DNA of 64,000 bases from an archaeon (GCA_041650735.1 JBAZKP010000001.1:310754-374753); one strand, 5' to 3'; positions 3,073 to 34,324 are shown, counted from the stretch's first letter. The notes: generated from the letters alone by a model not told the origin. Numbers and translations: made by a program.

Positions 3073-4139
3073 TTTTTCGCCTTCTCAGTAAACCATATTA
3101 ATAATGATGCGTTCATAAGCCAAGTAGCAATTAAATCGCCCACTAAACCAAAACATAAAATTGCTGCGATTTGGAAAACAACTTCGATTTGGAAAAGAAC
3201 TGAAATAACAATCATTGCTATTAATGCGGAAAGAGTTGTCGCATTCATGGTTAACCCCGTTTTTAGCGCAGAAAAGGTTCTTGAACTTGGGGTTCCGTCC
3301 TTTTCTTTAAGCACTTTTGAGGTAAGCATAATGTTTGTATCAACAGAAGAAGCAACAACCATTAACAATGCTGAAATCGTCAAAAGAGACAAAGGTATTT
3401 GGAGGAAAACCATTCCTGTCATTGCCATTAATACATCAAAAATCATTGCGCAAATTATGCCTAACACAGGGATAGTTTGGCGGAAAAAGATAAAAATAAT
3501 TATGATTAAACAAACCGCTGCCCAGAAAGCAATAACCATTCCTGATGAAAAAGCAGCTTTCCCAAATGTTGCAGAAATACTTCTGTGTTGAAACTCAACA
3601 TTTTCTCCAAGATCAAGTTTCTTAACAAGCACTTCTTTTAATTTATTTGAAAACTCCTCATTAAATTTAATCAAAGCATTTTGAGCTTCAGTTAGCGCAA
3701 CCTTTGCATTTGTGAAATTTTTGTCTTCTGAAGAAAGCAACTTAATTGCTTGGATTGAAAACTGAATGGATTCTTGCTCTTTTTTTTGCATTTCAGACTC
3801 GGAAGCATTATTGTCAGTTAAAGCTGTTTGGGCTTTTTCAATCAGTACTTCTGCTTCCAAAGCTTTTTCATCTTTATTATATTTTATGTAAGCGCCGTGA
3901 CTAGTTGGGGAGTTAATTGTGGATACATCAACAGGCATCCCAAATTCTGTTTCAATAATAGAAGTAACTTCTTGAGTAGATACTTCTTTGTCAAAACGAA
4001 TAATCAAAACATTTCCTCCTGTAATATCAATCCCTTGTTGGATTCCTGGGGAAATAAATACAAAAAACAGTAAAGGAATAGCAAGTATTAATGGAATAAA
4101 CACTACTTTTTTGTAGTTGTTTTTGTAAAAATCCTGCAT
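3069..4139 (-). CDS. secF: Protein translocase subunit SecF (archaeal)
   Basis: GIDITGG, ISATFG, SVDTNIMLT, GLVGDLIATWLMNA motifs; ATG at 4139 preferred over ORF-track start 4175. Confidence 0.9.
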   Translation of the reverse strand: MQDFYKNNYKKVVFIPLILAIPLLFFVFISPGIQQGIDITGGNVLIIRFDKEVSTQEVTSIIETEFGMPVDVSTINSPTSHGAYIKYNKDEKALEAEVLIEKAQTALTDNNASESEMQKKEQESIQFSIQAIKLLSSEDKNFTNAKVALTEAQNALIKFNEEFSNKLKEVLVKKLDLGENVEFQHRSISATFGKAAFSSGMVIAFWAAVCLIIIIFIFFRQTIPVLGIICAMIFDVLMAMTGMVFLQIPLSLLTISALLMVVASSVDTNIMLTSKVLKEKDGTPSSRTFSALKTGLTMNATTLSALIAMIVISVLFQIEVVFQIAAILCFGLVGDLIATWLMNASLLIWFTEKAKK

Positions 4140-4243
4140 AAAAAAACCTTTTTGCTTAGTAATAAATAAATTCAAAACAATTAAAAATGGTCCTAATTGC
4201 TTTGTCGTACCAATTAAAAAAGCTGTTAAACTGTAAATATGTT

Positions 4244-4669
4244 ATGAATACGAGAAAAAAAATGACTATTGCTCAAAGGTACAATGTGTATAAGTTTGTT
4301 CTTAGTGGATTGGTTGATACAGAGGCAGAAAAACAAGCAGGAGAAAGAGCAATAGCAAAATCAATCGCAAGGCACAGGGCAAAAATCAGAAAAATTGAGG
4401 AAAAAGCTGCAAGGAAAATGAAAATTGCTACTGAAAAAAAAATTCTTGTAAATATGCGAAAAGGAACAGCATTTAAAGACTCTGTGAAAACATTATTTAT
4501 TTCCTCCGCGAGAAGACTCTTAAAAGGAGGGATTGCTGCAGAAATTGCAAAAAAAGATTTGGAAGCATTTAAGAAAAAATATATTGAAAATCCAAACAAG
4601 GAAATAAGCAGATTAGCAATAAAAATAGTGGCGGAAATAAAGCAAGAAGCAAAAGAGGGAAAAAAATGA
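4244..4669 (+). CDS. Hypothetical basic helical protein
   Basis: Lys/Ala-rich ORF, stop overlaps the GTPase ATG (ATGA coupling); ATG at 4244 chosen. Confidence 0.55.
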   Translation: MNTRKKMTIAQRYNVYKFVLSGLVDTEAEKQAGERAIAKSIARHRAKIRKIEEKAARKMKIATEKKILVNMRKGTAFKDSVKTLFISSARRLLKGGIAAEIAKKDLEAFKKKYIENPNKEISRLAIKIVAEIKQEAKEGKK

Positions 4670-18717: not shown

Positions 18718-21700
18718 CTAATTAACATAATCAACAATATTTATTACTCCATACTGGTCGCCAGAAACACCTGTGCTGATTACCCCTGTTTCAATGCTTC
18801 TATCACTATAACCAGAATAATTTTGCCCAACAAACCTTGCTTTTAACAAGTTTCCTTCAATCCAAACAATGACCGAACCTTCGATTAACTTTGTTGAACC
18901 ATTCGCTTTTACACTCTTAATTTGGATTGTATTATCAGTGCTTGTTTTTCCTAATTCTACCCCTTCGTTTAATTGGCAAACATTATAACCTCCACTGCTC
19001 AATTCCCCTTCATCATAATAAGTACATTTAACCCACTCATTACATTCTTCAACACTAGGTGCTTCATCGAAAGGAGCGTATGTTGCGCAAAGAGGAGAGA
19101 ATCGTGAAGACTCAATAACCGGTTTTAAAATTAATTCGAACTCTCCATTAGATTTTCTTACTAATGCGTAACACGATCCCGCACCAACACAGTCCCCTGT
19201 CCAAAACCCTTTGCTTAAATCAAAACCAATCCAAGGGAAAGGAGTACTAGTCATAGCTACAAGTAAATCACTGATTTCTTTTGTAGTAATAGGACCTGCT
19301 TCATCGCTAACATAATTACTCCTAATAATGTCTCCTGTAATTCCTTCAAAGAATCCTTTCTGGCAATGTTCTTCAGCAGAACCAATTCCTGTTGCAGGCA
19401 TGAATTGCCTTGTAACCCAAAACACGTGGCTCCCTTCATTAAATCCTTTAAGGAAACCTGCAAGACCTTGTTTATTGTAAAGGCAATACTTTTGCTTAGC
19501 AGCCAAAACCGCATCATTCGTTTTTTCATTCTCAGTAATACTCAATCCTGTACAATCAGTAGAAGTAGGTAGTGTTGAAGGAGTCATGAGAGTATAAGCT
19601 CCGCAAAGAGGAAGGTAATGGTTTGAGTCAGTTGGAGAAGCAGGCACAGGAAGAATTGTTCCATCAGGCCCCCTTACTAGTGCTGTACAAGTAATAGGAC
19701 CTAAACTAACAAAACCATCTGGGTGTTCAAAAAGAGTATAATCCGGTTTTATGTTTGTTTCAAAACAATCTCCTGTCCAAAAACCTTTGGTTATATCATT
19801 ACCTGCCCATGAATAAAGCGTGCTACTTATTGCAGTCATCAACTCATCAAATTCGCTATCACTAATATAACCATATTTAAACAAGGAAAACGGTGATAAG
19901 AGATAACCGGGTTGACCCTCAAAGAAACCTTGTTGGCAATATTCTTCAGCAGAACCAATTCCTGCTTTTGGCATTGTCTGTGCTTTAGTCCAATAAACTT
20001 TTCCAGTAGAGTTGAGTTGAGTTTTAGTTTCAGGGTACGTAAATCCTACAGGAATAGTTTTTATTTTCTGACAATACTGCCTCATCTCATCAACAACACC
20101 GCTATTCGACACCTTACCAAAGTTTTTTAGCACATAAGTCATTCCCTCAACAGGATAAATAGTGTAATCCCCAAAGTTAGTGCTAATACTAATGTTATCA
20201 TATTTTGGAGCAAAAGAATCCAAATCAACTCCTTCAAATGCTGAAGAAGCCTTTGGTATATAATAATCCTCAAAAGCAGTGTACTGGCAAGAATTATTAA
20301 TCGTGAAACCAGTCTCTGGATTTGTTTCATACAAATTGAATACGTCCTTAGAAATAGCAAAACACTCATTAGGATTAGAAACATGTACTTTTAGAGTTTC
20401 AGCTATAGAATATTTTTTTGAAGTATTAGCGTTCTTTGCTTTTACATAAATAGGGAATACTCCAAGAATATCAGAAAAGCTTACACTTGAAGAATAACCC
20501 TTGTTTACTCCTTTGATTAAAACATTGCACTCCTTGTTAGGAGAAAGAGAACCTGTTGGGCAATTATTAGTCATTACAAGTCCTGACTCAATTGAAAGAC
20601 TTACGGGGAAAGGGCAAGTGCTTTTTATAACTAAATTAGCATCTGTATTCCAATTAATGCTCGTTTCCTTTGGTTCAAGCTCGCCTATAGAACTTGGGAA
20701 ATAAGCTTTAACACAAGCAAGACTCTGATCCATTATTCCCCCTGAACCAGCAGGAAGCGTTAAAGAAAGATTCTCATACGAGGAATCAGTAGGATAAACA
20801 TCAACATCCAAGCAATCCGTTTTGTAAGCATAAATATCATTTATTATTTTGCTAAAATAATTCCCATTAATGTCACCAGTACTAACCCATTCACTGAACA
20901 CGTTAGTAGAGTTTGTGGTTTTACAATTTCTTTTTGCTTCCAAGAATACTCCTGAAATTCCAACCGGAACGTTTCCAGGCAAGCCAAAAACTTCTCCATC
21001 AAACTTCTGGTCCATCACACCAGCTAGGAATTTTGCTCCAATAAGCTTCAATTTTCTCGCAGTTGACTTAGTGTTAATAAACAACAAATAATTTCCATCA
21101 CTTGTCTGTGCCTCAATAACAATGTAAGAAGTAACATTAGGTGCTGACGAATAAAAATTGGTTATCGGTGAATAATTCCTGCTATAAGGACTCAGACTCA
21201 TTGTTGCAACAGTTTTTGATGAAGCACCTGTTAGGGAATCAAATTTTATTTTATCTGAAAGAGTGCCGGAACTAAAAGATTCAATTGCGCCAGAATAAGA
21301 GTACACCCTCACATTAACATCAGTCATACTAACTACAGAATTATTGTACAAAGAAACCTCTAGTGTATTGCCTGTATCATGCTCTATTTTAGCTGTTCCA
21401 GAATCATTTTTATAGAATTTTTTTGAATCATTTTCGAAAGGATAACTAGAACTATTAGTATCAATACTATTAATTTTGACATCAAAAAACAATTTTGGGC
21501 AATTTGAATCAAGGGATGAATCACAAACAGGAGCGCCTACTTTAAATGAAATCCTCCCCTTATCCTCTGAAACAATAGTTGAGTGCTTTTCTTTTGCACT
21601 GAAATTAATGTCAAGGAAATCATTGTCCTTTGCATTATCCATCGAAAATTCTACAACAAAATTATAAGTTCCTTTAACCAGAGTTCCTTGCCACTGGATA

Positions 21701-24045
21701 CCCGCTTGTCTTCCTGGGCTTACAGAATTATTCCTAATATAATAACTGTCAGGGTTAGGGGTTTGTTCAACAGGAGCACTTGCATAAATTTCGTTATCTT
21801 TATAAAATAAAGGAGTATGATAAGGCATATTGGTAATCCAAGCCTTGTTGTTGAATATTATAGAACCAAACAAGTCAGAGTAACTCAAATCCTTGTTTAT
21901 TACAGCATCAATCCTCGCAAAATACTTTCCTTCTTTGTTTAGTATTCCTAAAAACCTGTTACTCTTTGCATCATAAGTATTACTATCATACAATCCGTTA
22001 AAGAAAACATTCACATTATTGTCAAGCATACTCACAGGGTAAAGTCTCACTGTGTAATTATTTTCCCCAATATTCAAAGTACCAGAAGGGATTTCAATGA
22101 AATTAGAAGCATAACCACTCAAGTCAATAGTAACCAATAAGTGGTTTAATCTTTCATACCCTGCACTTACAAAGTACCCGCTTTGGTAAGCAAGAACCTC
22201 TGTGGGAGAGCTAGGAATTGAGGAAAATTTTTCTGAATCAGAAAATAATTTTACAGTTGCAGTGCTAGCATTTAAAATTGAGTTCTGATTATAGTTAACC
22301 AACCGGATTCTTACGAAAGAAGCATTTAGATTAATATTGACATCAAGGTTAATTGTTTGGTTTACATCAAGAGATTTTTTTGCAGAAAAATCCGAAACAA
22401 TTCCGCTAAGTTTGGCGCTCGCAAAATATGTTCCTGCAGGAAGCCCGGTAAAGAGAGAAGCGCCAGCAGAATTAGTTAACAAAGGGTCTTTTCGGACATG
22501 AATCTCGTTTATTCTAAGAGAAGAAGAATTATAGTAAAGGGAAGCCTCTGCTCCATACAATGCTCTCTGGTCAGATTTGCTTTTCACACTCACTTTTGCA
22601 AAACCACTGTTCGAACCAGAAACTTTTTCAAGGTAAACAATTTCAGGACCCTCACCAATCTTAAAAAAAACAGGCTTGATGAACTTGTAGACGTACCCGT
22701 CCTTGTAAATAGAAGCAACTCTTTTTCCATCATAAATAACATTTGTATTCATGGAAACAATTCCTGAAGAATCAGTCAAACAACTCTTACTCTCAATCCC
22801 TGTCTGTGTTATGCAATTCTCGCCAGATTCTCCTGTGACATAAGTCCCGTTAACATCAGTACTTGTATATTGAATAAACAATTTTGCGCCTTGGACAGGA
22901 GTATTGTGGTCAGATTCCTCAAGAACCTTAATTCTTAGGTACCTAATATTTCTTGGATCAACTTTCTCCATTTCTATTTCTATTGAAGAAGAAACCCCTG
23001 CGGAAATAGTAATCGTTTTTCTTTGATCGACATCAATGGAAAGATAAGTTCCGTCAAAAATTGAAGCAATTACTGTGTAAGTACCAGGAAGAAGCGAAGT
23101 CATTGATACTCCTCCATTATCAGTCCTTGCGTTTGCTGCAGTCCCTCCAACAGAGTCAAGGAAAGAAATATTGATTCCAGGAATCATTTTTTTTGGAGAA
23201 GAACTTTTTTCAGAAACAAAAACCATTGCAGTACCAGTACCAGCAGGATATGCTGTTAAACTAATAGAGTTTTTGCTTGCAGGCAAAGGCTTTGAAACTC
23301 CTGACAAAGGTTCATACCCTGGAGCAGAAGCCTCAACAGCAATAAATTCACAATTAGGTTCATTCAAAGTAAATTCGCCATCAAGTGCCCCGTCATCATT
23401 ATCTTTCACAATTTTTTCGGAAATATTTTTATTATTACATTTGAAAACAATTTCAGCCACTCCTGTAGAATCAATAATTGTTACTCCTGAACCAGAATCA
23501 ATTAACTCAGCAATAGTACTGTCAGGATAAGAAAAATCAGCAGGAACAGGGGATAAAGAAATTTGTGCATTCCTCGAACTGAGATTCACTTCCTGGTCCT
23601 TGACTTTGTTATACCCTGTTTTTTCAGCGGAAATAATGGCAGAAACATCTTCCTCAGAAGGGAAAATCATTTGCCCAAGCATTTCATAAGTGTTTCTTGT
23701 ATTTCCTGAAATAGTTAGAATTGTAGTTCCATCAGAACCAGTTATTTCACTAAACAAATCTCCATTAATTGTTCCTGAAAGCTTAACAGTAGGCAGAGTC
23801 TTATTTGTTTTAGCATCAATGGTTGTAAAAGTAACATCATAAGGGGAATTGAATTGAATAAGGTACCCAACGAAAACCATCATGAAAAGAACTAAAAGCA
23901 GAAAAAGAACAAAACTCGGAACAACTTTATCAATAGGGTCAATTACTTTGTAAATAGGGGCTTTTCCATCAATCTTATCAAGGACATCATACCACTTATC
24001 TTCAAAGAAGTAATATATTCCCTTAAGTGAACTCCCCAAACCCAT
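18718..24045 (-). CDS. Giant (1775 aa) N-terminally anchored surface protein with carboxypeptidase-regulatory-like beta-sandwich repeats and a duplicated C-terminal Cys module
   Basis: Single TM near residue 45-62; repeated T(D/N)xxG...LPxGTY patterns; two copies of GIGSAEExCQxGFFEG...KGFWTGDC. Confidence 0.8.
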   Translation of the reverse strand: MGLGSSLKGIYYFFEDKWYDVLDKIDGKAPIYKVIDPIDKVVPSFVLFLLLVLFMMVFVGYLIQFNSPYDVTFTTIDAKTNKTLPTVKLSGTINGDLFSEITGSDGTTILTISGNTRNTYEMLGQMIFPSEEDVSAIISAEKTGYNKVKDQEVNLSSRNAQISLSPVPADFSYPDSTIAELIDSGSGVTIIDSTGVAEIVFKCNNKNISEKIVKDNDDGALDGEFTLNEPNCEFIAVEASAPGYEPLSGVSKPLPASKNSISLTAYPAGTGTAMVFVSEKSSSPKKMIPGINISFLDSVGGTAANARTDNGGVSMTSLLPGTYTVIASIFDGTYLSIDVDQRKTITISAGVSSSIEIEMEKVDPRNIRYLRIKVLEESDHNTPVQGAKLFIQYTSTDVNGTYVTGESGENCITQTGIESKSCLTDSSGIVSMNTNVIYDGKRVASIYKDGYVYKFIKPVFFKIGEGPEIVYLEKVSGSNSGFAKVSVKSKSDQRALYGAEASLYYNSSSLRINEIHVRKDPLLTNSAGASLFTGLPAGTYFASAKLSGIVSDFSAKKSLDVNQTINLDVNINLNASFVRIRLVNYNQNSILNASTATVKLFSDSEKFSSIPSSPTEVLAYQSGYFVSAGYERLNHLLVTIDLSGYASNFIEIPSGTLNIGENNYTVRLYPVSMLDNNVNVFFNGLYDSNTYDAKSNRFLGILNKEGKYFARIDAVINKDLSYSDLFGSIIFNNKAWITNMPYHTPLFYKDNEIYASAPVEQTPNPDSYYIRNNSVSPGRQAGIQWQGTLVKGTYNFVVEFSMDNAKDNDFLDINFSAKEKHSTIVSEDKGRISFKVGAPVCDSSLDSNCPKLFFDVKINSIDTNSSSYPFENDSKKFYKNDSGTAKIEHDTGNTLEVSLYNNSVVSMTDVNVRVYSYSGAIESFSSGTLSDKIKFDSLTGASSKTVATMSLSPYSRNYSPITNFYSSAPNVTSYIVIEAQTSDGNYLLFINTKSTARKLKLIGAKFLAGVMDQKFDGEVFGLPGNVPVGISGVFLEAKRNCKTTNSTNVFSEWVSTGDINGNYFSKIINDIYAYKTDCLDVDVYPTDSSYENLSLTLPAGSGGIMDQSLACVKAYFPSSIGELEPKETSINWNTDANLVIKSTCPFPVSLSIESGLVMTNNCPTGSLSPNKECNVLIKGVNKGYSSSVSFSDILGVFPIYVKAKNANTSKKYSIAETLKVHVSNPNECFAISKDVFNLYETNPETGFTINNSCQYTAFEDYYIPKASSAFEGVDLDSFAPKYDNISISTNFGDYTIYPVEGMTYVLKNFGKVSNSGVVDEMRQYCQKIKTIPVGFTYPETKTQLNSTGKVYWTKAQTMPKAGIGSAEEYCQQGFFEGQPGYLLSPFSLFKYGYISDSEFDELMTAISSTLYSWAGNDITKGFWTGDCFETNIKPDYTLFEHPDGFVSLGPITCTALVRGPDGTILPVPASPTDSNHYLPLCGAYTLMTPSTLPTSTDCTGLSITENEKTNDAVLAAKQKYCLYNKQGLAGFLKGFNEGSHVFWVTRQFMPATGIGSAEEHCQKGFFEGITGDIIRSNYVSDEAGPITTKEISDLLVAMTSTPFPWIGFDLSKGFWTGDCVGAGSCYALVRKSNGEFELILKPVIESSRFSPLCATYAPFDEAPSVEECNEWVKCTYYDEGELSSGGYNVCQLNEGVELGKTSTDNTIQIKSVKANGSTKLIEGSVIVWIEGNLLKARFVGQNYSGYSDRSIETGVISTGVSGDQYGVINIVDYVN
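19195..20003 (-). repeat. Internal duplication of about 191 aa (about 573 bp offset) in the 1775-aa protein
   Basis: TTCTTCAGCAGAACCAATTCCTG shared at about 19369 and about 19942; CCTGTCCAAAAxCCTTTG shared at about 19196 and about 19771. Confidence 0.8.
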
Positions 24046-28522: not shown

Positions 28523-28915
28523 CTATTTATTGATAATAGCATCAAGTCTGCCCGAGATTTTTGCCCACTTAAGTTTTTTATAATTTGGGGGCAATATTGT
28601 ATTAATTTGTTCACCGCAGTCAACAACTATTTTGGTGCCTTTTCTTTTTATTTCGCCGCTTATTTCATATCGAAAATTTTGTAGTTGGTTGATTTTTTTT
28701 GCTGGTTTTGATAATACGTCAATATTTAATGGATTTATAAATAACGACACATCTATAATTTTTCCTTCAAGATTTTTACCCTTATTCAAGTCCCATTCTT
28801 TTGAATATCCTAATTCCGTAAAGTCGGGCAGGAAACAATGTACTTGCTTTTTATTTATTTCTAGCAAAGCACTATCGCCGCAGTTAAAAAGTTTTATTAT
28901 TTTTGCCGAGCTCAT
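28523..28915 (-). CDS. Putative immunity protein 3 (paralogue family of the toxin locus)
   Basis: Directly after orphan toxin tip with AGGTG SD; shares CF, YxxxGxI, DCG and GRLD motifs with 29569-30009 and the N-terminus of 30006-30785. Confidence 0.65.
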   Translation of the reverse strand: MSSAKIIKLFNCGDSALLEINKKQVHCFLPDFTELGYSKEWDLNKGKNLEGKIIDVSLFINPLNIDVLSKPAKKINQLQNFRYEISGEIKRKGTKIVVDCGEQINTILPPNYKKLKWAKISGRLDAIINK

Positions 28916-28923
28916 GGAAACAC

Positions 28924-29544
28924 CTAATTTATCCTTGGATATGCTGTTTTTATTGCCGAATCTGTGGTATCAAAGGTTATTATTCTTACATCTATTTCTT
29001 TTTTTAAAGATGGCGAATAGACTTTTTTAACTAGCCTATAAGGGTCGGTTGGGTCTTTGGAAGCAGTTTTTGCTACGTTTTTTATGAAATCTTTAACTGC
29101 TTGATCTTCGTTTGCAAGATTAAAATATTTTTTAAAGTCTGCAGGATGCTTCCCAGCGACAATATGTTTCCATCCACCTTCACTTAAATCAATAACAGTT
29201 GATTCTTCCAGCCAAAGAGTTTGTGTGGCCCCTTTTGTAACGAAATGAGTTGAATCAAGTTTTGCACCTTTTTTAAGTGCTGTTTCCAGCATTTCGTTTG
29301 TTGCTCCAGCATTTTTTAGTTTAATAATTACTGTTTCTCCTTTGGTTGTGAACCATTTTGCTAGGTGTGTTGTGTTTGTTGTTATTCCTTTGCCTAAAAA
29401 ATCTACTTTCATTATTCCTAGTTCTGTTGCTCTTGCGATTCTTGTTCCTGAAATGGCTTCTTTTATTCCAAAAAAAGTCAAGTTAAGGGTTTTACCAATT
29501 TTTGATAATTTGGATAATGAGTTAACTATTTTGAATGCTTTGGC
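28924..29544 (-). pseudogene. Orphan toxin cassette: pre-toxin homology region plus alternative RNase-like tip, no clear start
   Basis: Frame open from 29544 (AKAFKIVNSLSKLSKIG) right after an in-frame TAA; matches residues of the 871-aa protein, then diverges to GGWKHIVAGKH...IKTAYP. Confidence 0.75.
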
Positions 29545-29545
29545 T
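29283..29545 (-). repeat. 263-bp copy of the toxin pre-tip region (partner 31233-31495)
   Basis: Ungapped alignment at offset 1950; about 69/87 aa identical by hand; includes an exact stretch of about 46 bp and one of about 35 bp. Confidence 0.9.
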
Positions 29546-29568
29546 TAAATTGATTAATATAATATTAC

Positions 29569-30009
29569 TTAAAAGCCATTTGTCCATTTAGTAAAATGCA
29601 GATTTATTCTTCCGGTTGCTTCTATCCACGCCCCTTTTTTAATATTTTTTTCAGTGGCTTTTATTTCAATTGGAAACCCGCAATCCAAAATTATTTTGTC
29701 TTCTGATTTATCCATTACTTGCCCAACAAGTTTGTATTGATTAACACTATTGGCATGTTTTTGAAGGTCAATGATTTTCTTTGTTCCATTTTTGTTTTTT
29801 TCAATTTGGAGACACATAAAGTCAAGAGAAATGTTAACATTAGATCCAATTTCTATATTTTTTATTTCTTGAATATCAAAATAATCGACAAAACACTTAA
29901 TTTTCTGACCTGTTTTTGCTTCGATAACTGCATTAGCTTCAGCGTCCTGCCATGCAGAAATTCTAAAATCCAAAAGTCTTGCCGCCCACCATTTATTCAT
30001 CATAATCAC
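29569..30009 (-). CDS. Putative immunity protein 2
   Basis: Overlaps the stop of the preceding tip (GTGA); IKCFVD, NQYKLVGQV, ILDCGF and GRINL motifs shared with paralogues. Confidence 0.65.
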   Translation of the reverse strand: MIMMNKWWAARLLDFRISAWQDAEANAVIEAKTGQKIKCFVDYFDIQEIKNIEIGSNVNISLDFMCLQIEKNKNGTKKIIDLQKHANSVNQYKLVGQVMDKSEDKIILDCGFPIEIKATEKNIKKGAWIEATGRINLHFTKWTNGF

Positions 30010-30785
30010 TCAGGAAATGCTGATATTACCCGCCCCTCAGTTTTTCTTGCTGTATCGGAACTCATTATCACTCGGATATTTTTTTCTATTCCATTTATTG
30101 TTACTCGTTTTTCAACCATATACTTACCATTAGAGTTATCACATATTGTGCCAGTTTTCAGTACATCTTCAATTACCTTTTTTACTGCTAAATCATTGTT
30201 AGCTAGCTTTAACGCGCTTTTAATATCATTATTATAATTATTAAACACAATATGCTTCCAGCCTAATTCATTGGTTGTTAGATTCACTTCCCAAAGTTTT
30301 GAAGCTTTCAATAAGCCCCCCAAAGATGACTTAATCTTATCTCCACAATATTTTCTATAAATTCCCCAGTTTTGGTGGTCAAGATACAAATCTATTCTTA
30401 CAATGGATTCCACATAATTCCCGACTTTTGCATTACAAAATCCATTTATCCCTATAATGAACCCGCATTCAATGAGCATTCGGTCTCCCTTTTTCTCAAT
30501 CACTTGTCCCACAAGTTTGTATTTGTTTACCGTAGGAGGGTGAGAAAGTTTTGTTATAGAGTTTACTGCTTGCTTAGCAAGCTCTATACTAAAAGGCATT
30601 GCGAATAGTCTAACCTTAATTTTTCCTTTTGGCTTCAAGGCAAGAAATTTTTCCGTTTCACTCGTGTCTAAAAAACATTCTATTTCATTTCCATTTACCT
30701 TAATTATTGCCTCACCTTCAGCATTTTGAAACGCTTTTGATTTGTATGAAAGAAGCTTGACAGTAATTGATTTTTTTAAAGACAT
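30006..30785 (-). CDS. Putative immunity protein 1 fused in frame to a degenerate second toxin tip
   Basis: N-terminal about 140 aa is in the immunity family (IECFLD, NKYKLVGQV, IECGF, VRIDL); C-terminal about 85 aa aligns ungapped to the toxin tip (ALKLANNDLAVK, SSDTxRKTEGR) but QKHH is replaced by NNYN. Confidence 0.75.
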   Translation of the reverse strand: MSLKKSITVKLLSYKSKAFQNAEGEAIIKVNGNEIECFLDTSETEKFLALKPKGKIKVRLFAMPFSIELAKQAVNSITKLSHPPTVNKYKLVGQVIEKKGDRMLIECGFIIGINGFCNAKVGNYVESIVRIDLYLDHQNWGIYRKYCGDKIKSSLGGLLKASKLWEVNLTTNELGWKHIVFNNYNNDIKSALKLANNDLAVKKVIEDVLKTGTICDNSNGKYMVEKRVTINGIEKNIRVIMSSDTARKTEGRVISAFPE

Positions 30786-30861
30786 AAATTCACCAGAATC
30801 ATTGTAATTTTAACTTCAATTAACAACTAATACTATTGATTACTATTAACTTTTATATCCT

Positions 30862-33477
30862 TTATGAAGTGGGGTGAAATGCAGTAATTATTCTACCCTC
30901 AGTTTTTCTTGTTGTATCGGAACTTACTATTACTCTTATGTCTTTTGTTAGACCATTTCTTGAAATTTTTGCAAGAATTTCATATTTACCATCTAGATTT
31001 TTAACAATAGTGCCTGTTTTTACCGCTTCATAAATTACTTCTTTTACAGCTAAATCATTATTAGCCAATTTCAGAGCTTTTTGTATTTCATTATGGTGCT
31101 TTTGAAATAATATGTGCCCCCATCCCCACCCATCTGCTTTGGCAATTCCATCCCCTAGGTAAGCAGTTCCTTTTTGCCAGTTGAATACATGTATAGTTTT
31201 ATTTAAAATTGTACTTCCTTTAGTAATTACTATTTCCAGCATTTCGTTTGTTGCTCCAGCATTTTTTAGTTTAATAATTGCTGTTTCTCCTTTGGTTGCG
31301 AACCATTCTGCCAAGTTTTCTGTGGTTGTTGTTATTCCTTTTCCTAAAAAATCTACTTTCATTATTCCTAGTTCTGTACCTCTAGCGATTATTGTGCCGC
31401 TGACAGGTTTTGCAACTCCTTTGAAGAACAAGTTCATTCCCGTGCCAATTTTTGATAATTTTGATAATGAGTTTACTATTTTGAATGCTTTGGCTCCGTC
31501 GCTCAGGAAGGCAAGAACTTTGGCTGCTTTTGCTGCGGCGCCAAGTTCTGTTCCGCCTACAGGTTCAATCATTATTACTGTGGAAACAACATCAAAACCA
31601 CAGCCAAGAGTAAGAATTCCATCATCAATGCAAGAACCAATGGTTATGAGTTTAGCGCCCTCTATTCCTGCTTCTATGGTGAACGCAGCCCAATCAATAT
31701 CCGTGAACTCGAAAGGAATTATTGTGGAATCACATGAATCAGCATAAGCTAAATCAGCTTTGTCTTCTGAATTAAGTGCTAAACCAGTTTTTGTGATTTG
31801 CATTTCTTGTATTTTGTAGGCTTTGGCCATTGCGTTTGAACAAGTGTTTCCGACATTAATCCTAACCCAGTTAGCGGTTATGGTCCATCCTGTAGTGGTT
31901 TTTACATATGGTGCAACATATATTGCGCAAACACCTTTTTTTGAAGAAACCATTGCGGCATAATTGCTTGAAGAATTAAGTTTTCCAGTAATTTTTATTG
32001 CATCACTCTTATCGCTTTTGTATGCAAAATAAATCCCTGTTTCGTTTACCCCTCCTTCTATGTTCCACTCAATAGAACCAACATAACCAACATCAATGCT
32101 TGAAGTATAATTAGTAACATGAACATCTCCAGGGACATAAGTGCATGAGCCATTATTGCACCCCCCTCCTTTGCAATCCTGTTTCAAATCTTCTTTTTGG
32201 TTACAAGAATTATACCAATAAGCGTTACCATTATAGCAAGCAGAGTAAAAGTGAGAAGTACATGTAGGAGTGGAATTACATGTTCCATTAGAACAACCCT
32301 TTCCTTGGCAATTCTGGACCAAGGATTCTTCTACCTGGCTATTTGAATAACAGTTATCACTACTGCATCCTTTTGAGAGATTTGTTCGTTGTTTATACAC
32401 GTTACCGCTTTTACAGTAATTTGCTCCCCAGCTTCCCGTTGAAGAAGAACCGCATTCATTTTTCTTGCTCTCTCTTTGGTTACAGGAATTATACCAATAA
32501 ACATCCTTGTTATAGCACTGGTAATATTCATGAGAATAACAACTAGGAGAATAATCACACGCTCCATCAGTACAACCGTTTCCCTCGCAATCTTGAATAA
32601 AATTTGTTTCAGAATCATCATTTGAATAACATGCATTATTACTACAACCCCTAGAAATATTTGTTAACCGCTCATAAACATTTCCATTGGAACAAAAAGA
32701 TTCCCACCATTCTCCCTGCTCGGATTCCCCACAGTCTTGCTTTATTTCTTCCATTTGGTTGCATGAATCAAACCAATACAAATCATTGCCAGAACAAGAA
32801 GAATAAGCATGAGAAGTGCATGAAGGAGAAGAATTACATAAACCATTTGAACAACCTTTGTCTTCACAATCCTGAACTCTTGTTTCCTCTATCTGCCTAT
32901 TTGAGAAACACGCTCCATTGCTACATCCTTTAGAAATATTTGTTCTCTGTTTGTAAACATCCCCGTTTTTACAATAATTTTCACTCCAATAACCAGTGAA
33001 AGGGTTTCCGCAATCCTCTACTTCTTTCCAATAATAAAAAAACCCGCACTCGGGAGAAGAAACATAAGAACCAACATATCTTTTTGGGTTACCAATCCCG
33101 CAAGTATAAACACCAGAATCAGTAAAATTTATTCCGAGAGAAACCAAATCAGTTCCTGCAATAGAAGCACAATCACAAGTGCTTGATTGGCATGGTTTTA
33201 CACAGCCAACCAAATTATTTGAAGCAGCATAACAAGTGTAACCATAAGCTCCGCCGCAATCAACAGAACCCTCAGCACTAGCCATGGAAGAACCATTGCA
33301 CCAAACATTGCCTGAAGAAGAAACAGCATAATTCACATGATAAAAAGTCCCATTCAGGTTCATAACCTCATTTTTAGGAATCCCTATTGCGGAAGAAGCA
33401 AATGAAAAAGAAAAAAGAAAACACAAGAATAAAAATAAGAAAGAAATTTTATTAAAATTTGATTTAATTGAACGCAC
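30862..33477 (-). CDS. Secreted polymorphic-toxin-like protein: signal peptide, Cys-rich repeats, beta-sandwich, hydrophobic pre-toxin region, predicted RNase tip
   Basis: GTG start and Sec signal; 93-aa Cys repeats; CGFDVVS...EPVGG...AKAAK pre-toxin segment; C-terminal GWGHILFQKH...GRIITAF resembling BECR/EndoU-type toxin tips. Confidence 0.75.
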   Translation of the reverse strand: MRSIKSNFNKISFLFLFLCFLFSFSFASSAIGIPKNEVMNLNGTFYHVNYAVSSSGNVWCNGSSMASAEGSVDCGGAYGYTCYAASNNLVGCVKPCQSSTCDCASIAGTDLVSLGINFTDSGVYTCGIGNPKRYVGSYVSSPECGFFYYWKEVEDCGNPFTGYWSENYCKNGDVYKQRTNISKGCSNGACFSNRQIEETRVQDCEDKGCSNGLCNSSPSCTSHAYSSCSGNDLYWFDSCNQMEEIKQDCGESEQGEWWESFCSNGNVYERLTNISRGCSNNACYSNDDSETNFIQDCEGNGCTDGACDYSPSCYSHEYYQCYNKDVYWYNSCNQRESKKNECGSSSTGSWGANYCKSGNVYKQRTNLSKGCSSDNCYSNSQVEESLVQNCQGKGCSNGTCNSTPTCTSHFYSACYNGNAYWYNSCNQKEDLKQDCKGGGCNNGSCTYVPGDVHVTNYTSSIDVGYVGSIEWNIEGGVNETGIYFAYKSDKSDAIKITGKLNSSSNYAAMVSSKKGVCAIYVAPYVKTTTGWTITANWVRINVGNTCSNAMAKAYKIQEMQITKTGLALNSEDKADLAYADSCDSTIIPFEFTDIDWAAFTIEAGIEGAKLITIGSCIDDGILTLGCGFDVVSTVIMIEPVGGTELGAAAKAAKVLAFLSDGAKAFKIVNSLSKLSKIGTGMNLFFKGVAKPVSGTIIARGTELGIMKVDFLGKGITTTTENLAEWFATKGETAIIKLKNAGATNEMLEIVITKGSTILNKTIHVFNWQKGTAYLGDGIAKADGWGWGHILFQKHHNEIQKALKLANNDLAVKEVIYEAVKTGTIVKNLDGKYEILAKISRNGLTKDIRVIVSSDTTRKTEGRIITAFHPTS
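31233..31495 (-). repeat. Pre-tip region of the full-length toxin, duplicated at 29283-29545
   Basis: Direct DNA comparison of the two segments. Confidence 0.9.
32140..33015 (-). repeat. About three tandem 279-bp (93-aa) Cys-rich repeats
   Basis: TNISKGC/TNISRGC/TNLSKGC recur at 32929, 32650 and 32371 (279-bp period); CxSHxYxxC...YWxxSCNQ in each. Confidence 0.9.
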
Positions 33478-33523
33478 AATTAGAATTTCTGTTAAAGGGA
33501 TTAATATACTCTTGGTAGAAATT

Positions 33524-33566
33524 TTATCAACCTGCAGGTTGATAATTTTACAACCAAAAAGTTGAT
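33524..33566. promoter_or_regulatory. Perfect 22-bp palindrome plus second CAAC-N6-GTTG site upstream of the toxin promoter
   Basis: TTATCAACCTGCAGGTTGATAA at 33524-33545; ACAAC-caaaaa-GTTGAT at 33550-33566; TATA-like TATATTAA (minus) at about 33501-33508. Confidence 0.55.
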
Positions 33567-33673: not shown

Positions 33674-34324
33674 TTATTCTTTTGTCCATTTTTGCATTTC
33701 TTTCAAAGCTTTTTCTGTTTCATCTAATTCAGATAATTTTTCTTCAAGGTCCTTTACCTGTTTATCAGCAGCACCCATTCTAAATCCCTTTAAATCATCA
33801 GCGAACTGCGCAACTTTCTTATTTTTTTTGTAAATAATTGAAGTGTTAACAGTTTCAGTTAATTGTTTCCTGTACTCAATATCATTAACAAACATTTTCA
33901 CCATTGGCTGCCACTTTTTATCAGAAACAAGATGTGCAGGAAGCTTTACTGAATCAGCGTCTTTTCTGTAATCAGAATCAATCATGCTCTTAGCAACATG
34001 CTTCCAGTACAAAGGCTCAGCAAGTTTTTTTACTTGGTGGACCTGATGATACATTGAAGCGGAAAAATGCTGGTGTTTCCACTGGCCCAATTTTTGGGAA
34101 TAAATTTTTTTTTTCTCCCTAAGCTCTTTCAATTTTGAATCAATTACGCCAGAATTAGGGTACGAAAGCTGGGGCCATTCTTTTCCATTATCATGAGCCT
34201 TTACAACCCCATTAACCGCAAGATAATGCTCTAAGGCTTTTCTTCTCTCCCCGTTCTTAGGTGCTTTAGGAAAAGTTTTTTCAAAATCCTTAATGGAAGC
34301 AACAACCCCGTGCATACAACTCAC
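33674..34324 (-). CDS. Hypothetical protein with C-terminal coiled coil
   Basis: 216-aa ORF with ordinary composition; no recognised motif. Confidence 0.65.
   Translation of the reverse strand: MSCMHGVVASIKDFEKTFPKAPKNGERRKALEHYLAVNGVVKAHDNGKEWPQLSYPNSGVIDSKLKELREKKKIYSQKLGQWKHQHFSASMYHQVHQVKKLAEPLYWKHVAKSMIDSDYRKDADSVKLPAHLVSDKKWQPMVKMFVNDIEYRKQLTETVNTSIIYKKNKKVAQFADDLKGFRMGAADKQVKDLEEKLSELDETEKALKEMQKWTKE

Follow-up and report, generated by a model that had tools for sequence, protein, structure and literature searches.

The framework for polymorphic toxins was set out by Zhang et al. 2012 (PMC3482391). In the orphan arrays of the bacterial cdiA-CT/cdiI and rhs-CT/rhsI systems, a conserved carrier is joined at a short junction motif to a variable tip with its immunity gene, and start-less downstream tips keep a conserved stretch as a handle, accompanied by displaced remnants and extra immunity genes. 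Archaeal polymorphic toxins are so far predictions, found both in PMC3482391 and in a later paper that cites it; comparative genomics has pointed to colicin D and PD-DExK tips on secreted proteins and to DUF4157 signatures (Makarova, Wolf and Koonin 2019, PMC6393860). Here we describe a locus that shares the layout of the bacterial arrays. It lies on the minus strand, at positions 28523-33566 of a 64,000-nt archaeal stretch (GCA_041650735.1 JBAZKP010000001.1:310754-374753), and we refer to that whole stretch as the window. In our view it is likely to be a polymorphic toxin-immunity locus that includes orphan cassettes.

The described system that it most resembles in the fold of its toxin domain is the contact-dependent inhibition (CDI) system of Serratia marcescens BWH57. 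As in the BWH57 CdiA-CT/CdiI pair, a large exported protein has the toxin domain as its C-terminal end and a small, candidate protective gene comes next; the two toxins share a beta-hairpin, a helix with G-x-x-H-I-V-x-x-H and a sheet of four strands, the last of which reads ...V-x-V-x-S-N/D-G.... The partner is different, a predicted two-OB-barrel protein of 130-180 aa here, whereas CdiI of BWH57 is a 98-aa alpha/beta protein. Unlike CDI toxins, the carrier has no filamentous haemagglutinin (FHA) repeats, VENN motif, CdiB or outer membrane, and its host is archaeal; unlike Rhs toxins, it has no YD repeats and no DPxGL junction. The junction is ATNEMLE instead of the VENN, DPxGL or LXG-type sequences of bacterial polymorphic toxins, the carrier has archaeal Cys-rich repeats and GSCxDDG, and export is presumably by Sec alone. 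In barnase and barstar, too, a secreted BECR-fold ribonuclease (RNase) is paired with a protein inhibitor that stays in the cytoplasm and has its gene close by, but barnase is a small free enzyme without a carrier, tip polymorphism or orphan cassettes, and barstar is a small alpha/beta protein.

A scan of all five locus proteins against Pfam and NCBIfam gave nothing credible. This lack of a match to the carrier, tip or immunity family fits the original prediction, an earlier reading of the window, which did not recognise the carrier and immunity family as a described system. There is no mention in PMC6393860 of this tip family, of the ATNEMLE module or of an OB-barrel partner. Three things appear to be undescribed, with an earlier description possible in the fuller 2019 mBio survey: the carrier block with ATNEMLE at its junction, the family of OB-barrel partners and, in a DPANN genome, an array of orphan cassettes.

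The five open reading frames (ORFs) all lie at the positions and in the order that had been predicted. On the minus strand they run from 33477 to 28523 as A871, the Imm1-CT2 fusion, Imm2, the start-less CT3 and Imm3:

30862..33477, minus strand: A871, the main toxin gene (ORF, 871 aa), with a signal peptide, three Cys-rich repeats, a beta domain, a GSCIDDG segment, a pre-toxin module and tip CT1
30865..31233, minus strand: tip CT1, A871 residues 749-871 (123 aa), a predicted BECR-fold RNase-type toxin domain (AlphaFold2, Foldseek and profile)
30006..30785, minus strand: B259, an ORF of 259 aa comprising Imm1 and CT2
30372..30785, minus strand: Imm1, B259 residues 1-138, candidate immunity protein for CT1 (paralogy to Imm2; hidden Markov model (HMM) of the Imm family, 5.6e-44)
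30009..30371, minus strand: CT2, B259 residues 139-259, a truncated tip remnant in frame with Imm1 (similarity to the CT1 core)
29569..30009, minus strand: C146, or Imm2 (ORF, 146 aa), candidate immunity protein for CT2-type tips
28924..29544, minus strand: orphan cassette CT3, a pre-toxin arm and a complete tip (homology to A871; conserved positions intact)
28924..29481, minus strand: the 185-aa ORF of CT3, with a mechanical TTG start
28523..28915, minus strand: E130, or Imm3 (ORF, 130 aa), candidate immunity protein for CT3 (Imm family HMM, 6.8e-35)

Pairwise BLASTP comparisons related these parts to one another. Residues 683-856 of A871 matched the 185-aa ORF (49% identity, E 7e-43), and residues 766-867 matched residues 139-257 of B259 (49% identity, E 8e-30). 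The N-terminal part of B259 matched both C146 (33% identity, E 2e-21) and E130 (25% identity, E 3e-7). These values are far above chance and define three tips and three paralogous downstream modules, in agreement with the claim that a paralogous module of 130-146 aa directly follows each tip. The three tip copies at the locus are the only ones in the whole 984-kb genome.

The tip family and its predicted fold

A profile built from the three window copies, searched against 1.84 billion representatives, recovered 55 proteins. The tip domain ended 0-4 residues from the C-terminus of the protein in about 40 of the 45 real matches. The sole exceptions to this C-terminal rule, from the search of representatives, were two proteins of ~700 aa (P0049 and P0057), in which the tip is internal (residues about 305-431) and ~275 residues lie beyond it. 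Single-protein scans of genome contigs and metagenome contigs found no relatives; the degenerate alignment A5, used as query, recovered seven metagenome loci.

The tip core is ~90-120 aa long and reads as a beta-hairpin followed by GWGWxHI, xHHxQI, LaDNDxAVK, VVVSD and GxIxTAYP. Both motifs that had been ascribed to all three tips, GWxHI and a terminal (T/S)A(F/Y), were present in CT1, CT2 and CT3. A His-x-x-x-x-x-His pattern had been claimed as well; it holds for CT1 and CT3, but not for CT2, which has Tyr at the second His (NNYN). This near-invariant pair corresponds to His788 and His794 of A871, and is at least 90% conserved across the tip family.

We modelled CT1 with AlphaFold2, using residues 736-871 and 38 family sequences as input. 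The resulting model (predicted local distance difference test (pLDDT) 87.4, predicted template modelling score (pTM) 0.83) matched 7m5f chain C in a Foldseek search of the PDB (E 3.6e-5, probability 1.00, TM 0.62/0.69, 134 columns). No second significant match to the CT1 model (E <1e-3) was found in the PDB, the next having an E of 0.085. An independent sequence profile of the tip identified the same chain, 7m5f_C, deposited as 'Toxin CdiA' (E 9e-4). Chain C of 7M5F is described as the toxin domain of the BWH57 CDI system, with a BECR fold (PMC8616854). In the profile alignment, the GWxHI..xH of the tips lies opposite GLQHIVEEH of 7m5f_C, and His788 and His794 lie opposite H47 and H52; the depositors consider H47, E51, H52 and R89 the probable active-site residues of the BWH57 toxin (PMC8616854).

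Sub-threshold Pfam matches of the tips fell on BECR-type families (DUF4258 four times, PBECR3 and PBECR1 twice each, Ntox35 and EndoU_bacteria once each) and agree, weakly, with a BECR fold. The prediction of a BECR/EndoU-type RNase tip was borne out for BECR, by both fold and profile, but not specifically for EndoU. Membership of EndoU was rejected, as the window tips gave no match at E up to 1 and EndoU_bacteria matched 1 of 38 tips, at E 0.019. We regard the BECR fold of the tip as reasonably established by model and profile, and we infer from it that the tip is an RNase.

Partner genes, junction and orphan cassettes

The tip is coupled to its downstream gene well beyond the window. With partner HMMs built from the window copies, a partner-family gene was found directly after the tip in 10 of the 13 genome loci with downstream DNA. 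The same was true of L004, L050, L052, L055 and L056, and twice of L057, which brings this adjacency to about 17 loci. There is no Pfam model for the partner family, only stray sub-threshold matches on OB families, and Imm2 has a single close relative among 5.8 billion clustered proteins. The AlphaFold2 model of Imm2 (pLDDT 88.8) has two OB-like barrels; its best PDB matches, the di-Mop domains of ModG/ModE and the TOBE domain of MalK, resemble it in fold only (E 1e-3, TM about 0.49). As read from their sequences, the partner proteins are leaderless. Imm1 has GGTGA 8 nt ahead of its ATG, the start of Imm2 and the stop of the ORF ahead of it overlap, and Imm3, which begins 8 nt past the CT3 stop, has AGGTG ahead of its ATG. 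We propose these two-OB-barrel proteins as a candidate immunity family that has so far gone unannotated.

Two further arrangements of partner genes were observed. A divergent OB-barrel subfamily of about 150 aa (...ITLFD...GDFV...), found at L028 7834-8289 (-) and L035 8712-9164 (+), adjoins the main subfamily; it comes after the tip in G152 and after the first of the partner genes in G146. Its members resemble orphan immunity genes that have no tip. In L031 (G153:C1, 3563-10695), two complete tip-bearing genes, of 1584 aa and 637 aa, stand in tandem with one partner-like gene between them.

Tips and partners diversify together: across 18 pairs, tip identities and partner identities were correlated (Mantel r 0.48), and 0 of 5000 permutations reached a value as high. 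The boundary between carrier and tip is sharp, and lies at ATNEMLE. A871 and the L004 toxin are 99% identical over the 85 residues before this motif and 62% identical after it, A871 and the orphan CT3 are 79% and 34% identical, and P0009 and P0036 are 62% and 28% identical. Similar tips also occur on dissimilar carriers, as A871 and P0005 are 54% identical before ATNEMLE and 57% after it. In P0036, encoded at L053, the tip is of a second subtype (GLIHIEERH ... GGWCYF ... VVVASNGFVLTANP), and the gene behind it is an unrelated one of 180 aa. The L053 carrier is closely related to P0009, and its tip motif is even closer to that of 7M5F; the 180-aa gene (3901-4440, +) is a candidate second immunity family.

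We compared the window with L004, from a related population, to see how the locus differs between relatives. L004 encodes an orthologous carrier in a toxin of 827 aa, with 80% protein identity over the carrier, and has the same Yip1-like gene behind the locus. Between the toxin and the Yip1-like gene L004 has a single partner gene, 61% identical to Imm2 and 38% identical to Imm1; the window has extra material between carrier and Yip1-like gene. The L004 tip is a mosaic. Its N-terminal 32 residues are CT1-like (78% vs 50%) and the remainder is CT2-like (62% vs 50%); with 61% overall identity to CT1 and CT2 alike, it was rejected as a simple CT2 orthologue. The comparison across relatives that had been suggested as a check on the locus thus found it to vary, L004 combining the carrier with a changed tip and only an Imm2-like partner. 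A 216-aa gene without a Pfam match (33674-34324, -) lies immediately upstream of the toxin gene in the window; in L004 that position holds a different, 245-aa gene on the opposite strand, so the upstream border of the locus is variable too.

The CT3 cassette contains a direct repeat of part of the main gene:

29283..29545, minus strand: recombination handle (262 bp), with its counterpart at 31233-31495 in the main gene and an offset of 1950 bp (nucleotide identity)

The frame of CT3 is homologous to A871 from the first codon past a TAA at 29545-29547 (AKAFKIVNSLSKLSKIG...), and neither an ATG nor a Shine-Dalgarno-like sequence was found for it. The DNA at 29267-29545 is 89-96% identical to that at 31217-31495, with 100% identity over 30 nt next to the junction (29284-29313), and sliding-window identity drops abruptly at both ends of the handle. 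The shared arm begins right after the stop codon and ends at ATNEMLE. The tip of CT3 keeps both conserved His residues, the Lys of AVK and the TAYP end, and all its conserved positions are intact, over a divergence at which synonymous sites are saturated (pS 0.70). Its closest tips, in L055 (53%) and G051 (48%), are both on full-length toxins elsewhere, and Imm3 could therefore have a present protective use.

CT2 is ~60% identical to the CT1 core. Because its first (N-terminal) helix and most of the hairpin are missing, and Tyr replaces the second conserved His, we regard CT2, from its sequence, as probably an inactive, disarmed tip remnant. Omega between the paralogues was 0.16-0.5, with synonymous sites so near saturation (pS 0.6-0.78) that these values are uninformative about selection on CT2. 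The orphan tip cassettes that had been proposed, with a start-less CT3, were recovered as CT3-Imm3 with its 262-bp handle and as the CT2 remnant with Imm2.

A second start-less orphan tip occurs in another lineage (L057 and L058), where it follows a full toxin-partner pair and has a partner of its own. In L057 (3134-3445, +), and likewise in L058, this orphan tip of 98-104 aa starts at the hairpin DDVAILKKG and overlaps the end of the preceding partner gene; a 150-aa partner and then a protein of >3600 aa come after it.

The geometry of the repeats suggests how the cassettes might be used. If the 262-bp handle underwent homologous recombination with its counterpart in A871, 1950 bp would be lost and the carrier would end in CT3, with Imm3 behind it; CT3-Imm3 would on this view be a silent spare. 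In the simplest history, a CT1-Imm1 cassette would have replaced the 5' part of an older tip, and CT2 would be the displaced 3' remnant of that tip, left in frame with Imm1 and with Imm2 behind it.

These observations also bear on whether the tip is a toxin at all. It might instead be a non-toxic enzymatic or binding module, with the OB proteins acting as chaperones or RNA binders and the extra copies being debris of duplication; none of the parts has a family annotation, CT2 is clearly degenerate and OB folds are generic. The only significant match by structure and by profile is nevertheless a CDI toxin, the tip is strictly C-terminal on unrelated carriers, and a partner gene comes after it in about 17 loci. 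Debris would also fit poorly with a CT3 intact at its conserved positions despite a pS of 0.70, and with a handle that is 100% identical over 30 nt by the junction. We judge a non-toxin origin of these features highly improbable. The predicted polymorphic-toxin architecture held up on six counts: a C-terminal tip on many unrelated secreted proteins, the CDI-toxin match, the partner in those loci, the sharp junction, the variation of the locus and the second orphan case.

Carrier, host and proposed action

The remaining features of the locus are in the carrier and ahead of its gene:

33385..33477, minus strand: Sec-type signal peptide, A871 residues 1-31, MRSIKSNFNKISFLFLFLCFLFSFSFASSA (read from sequence)
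32191..33027, minus strand: three tandem 93-aa Cys-rich repeats, A871 residues 151-429 (279-nt direct repeats)
31618..31644, minus strand: TIGSCIDDG motif, which opens a moderately hydrophobic segment at residues about 600-645 (motif present in six other carriers)
31234..31494, minus strand: pre-toxin module, A871 residues 662-748, with ATNEMLE at its end (common to CT3 and other carriers)
33524..33545, no strand assigned: perfect 22-bp palindrome TTATCAACCTGCAGGTTGATAA, a putative operator (read from sequence)

The signal peptide and 93-aa Cys repeats of the original prediction were both recovered. A871 begins with a hydrophobic leader that has FASSA at its end (Kyte-Doolittle 19-residue maximum 2.2, residues 13-31), and its three repeats, each with 10 Cys residues and a 279-nt period, are 62-73% identical as direct repeats and would form a disulfide-rich stalk. 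A beta-rich region is present. The hydrophobic pre-toxin segment stood in part: residues 610-642 are moderately hydrophobic, but with a borderline Kyte-Doolittle maximum of 1.6 and charged residues inside they do not form a clear transmembrane helix. A stop-transfer anchor at these residues, which would hold the tip in the cytoplasm, was not supported for the same reasons.

The block ahead of the tip is conserved between carriers. TIGSCIDDG is located ~165-170 residues before the tip in P0003, P0005, P0007, P0008, P0009 and P0010, and the invariant columns of alignment A5 within it are T, I, G, S, C, D and G. The pre-toxin module is common to A871, the orphan CT3, P0003, P0005 and P0007-P0011; a second pre-toxin type, GYxxGYxxEQ, precedes the same tip family in other proteins. 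In long carriers of the family (400-2000 aa), a leader is accompanied by beta-sandwich domains of extracellular type (CarboxypepD_reg, CARDB, NPCBM_assoc, Big_1 and TSP3). Pfam and NCBIfam searches of A871 and seven other carriers detected no RHS, YD, haemagglutinin/FHA or LXG domains, and the VENN motif is absent from the locus sequence. Such carriers would presumably be exported by Sec and displayed on the cell surface.

The palindrome TTATCAACCTGCAGGTTGATAA lies ~50 nt upstream of the toxin gene start, and a TATATTAA box lies between it and the main gene, ~30 nt ahead of the start. Read as sequence elements, the two could be an operator, on which some regulator of the locus would act, and a promoter. 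Neither Rfam nor tRNA scans gave a match in the window, and hence there is no signature of a tRNA-linked island. About 5 kb downstream on the same strand (window 18718-24045, -) is a gene for a 1775-aa protein with CarboxypepD_reg and SpaA-like domains; this domain set resembles that of other carriers of the tip family, and the protein has no copy of the tip.

The host assembly comprises 984 kb in 16 contigs and is 88% complete. Near the locus are genes for a Hel308-type helicase, which has the 'archaeal helicase domain 4', and for the RuBisCO large subunit; among species-representative genomes, the nearest relatives of the helicase come from groundwater 'archaeon' metagenome-assembled genomes (MAGs) and one 'Candidatus Iainarchaeum archaeon'. 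A DPANN-type host had been proposed, and the genome size of 0.98 Mb, the archaeal Hel308-type helicase, the RuBisCO gene and the Candidatus Iainarchaeum relatives all speak for it. A DPANN-type (Iainarchaeota-like) archaeon is a fair, supported description of the host.

Taken as a toxin-immunity locus, the parts would act as follows. Surface-displayed A871 would deliver its tip into a neighbouring cell on contact, and there the tip would cleave RNA, most likely tRNA or rRNA, by means of His788 and His794. Imm1 would bind and block CT1 in the cytoplasm of the producer. Imm2 and Imm3 would be kept as protection against CT2-type and CT3-type toxins of relatives, and both types exist in other genomes.

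The target could also be a host. As an effector for host manipulation, the tip would slow or reprogram host translation through the contact zone, the partners would protect the symbiont and turnover would track host resistance. The structural evidence is the same for this explanation, the organism is of the DPANN type, and the carriers are surface proteins with adhesin-like domains. Retention of Imm2 against the L004-type toxin of a close relative argues instead for a conflict between relatives. Orphan immunity genes would be superfluous for an effector directed solely at a host, and no host is known for the source MAG. This host-directed explanation seems to us quite improbable.

Several points weigh against the toxin-immunity reading. 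The parts of PMC8616854 that concern the BWH57 toxin report no activity for it, and its own RNase assignment rests on fold alone. The tips are remote from 7M5F, with 19% identity and a profile E of only 9e-4, and the position of Glu51 in 7M5F is variable among them. In the models, the partner fold is unlike that of the BWH57 CdiI, and OB folds are ordinary nucleic-acid binders as well. A Mantel correlation such as ours is expected for any two linked genes, and the variant tips found on the ATNEMLE pre-toxin module all belong to one superfamily, a narrower polymorphism than in bacterial systems. The carriers have no recognisable translocation or receptor-binding domain that would help a Sec-exported protein across the envelope of another cell. 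The functions given here are predictions from sequence and models.

A carrier without a recognisable translocation domain would suit an enzyme that is never delivered. In such a scheme, akin to barnase and barstar, a secreted or surface RNase would scavenge nucleotides from environmental or host RNA, and OB-barrel inhibitors would protect the producer. The BECR fold, of the class that includes barnase, the leaderless partner genes and the reduced 0.98-Mb genome are compatible with this, and DPANN archaea commonly lack nucleotide synthesis. A nutritional enzyme should, however, be widespread and stable, whereas the tip family is patchy: it occurs in 13 of the phylum's 215 genomes and 9 of its 79 genera, and in 2 of the 21 genomes of the genus. 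The joint diversification of tips and partners and the sharp junction count against scavenging too, and the retention of start-less spare tips with partners, and of extra partners without tips, is typical of conflict rather than nutrition. We regard scavenging as improbable, and favour toxin and immunity.

A bolder version of the toxin-immunity reading is conceivable, and we hold it to be rather unlikely. A self-contained, archaeon-specific delivery block, made up of the beta domain, the hydrophobic GSCxDDG segment and the helical ATNEMLE module, would move a BECR RNase from the DPANN cell surface across both the S-layer and the membrane of another archaeon, possibly a host, and the OB partners would be a new class of immunity protein that mimics or competes with the RNA substrate. 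If true, symbiotic archaea would have a weapon that depends on contact and works without bacterial secretion machinery.

Implications for archaeal antagonism

Hardly any experiments have addressed antagonism among archaea, or that of DPANN symbionts and their partners. The locus is a compact and complete example of the predicted arrangement, with a main toxin, a cognate immunity gene, a silent spare, a handle, a displaced remnant and a fixed junction. It also brings to light about 55 related tips, a family of candidate immunity proteins that lacks annotation, and an archaeal pre-toxin block that is conserved. Its three tip-partner pairs permit cognate and non-cognate combinations to be compared, and the conserved His pair offers obvious targets for mutation. 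The ATNEMLE junction provides a rule for finding further cassettes in archaeal genomes. The concept of polymorphic toxins is left unchanged; at the strength given above, this locus would extend it to a new host group with new parts.

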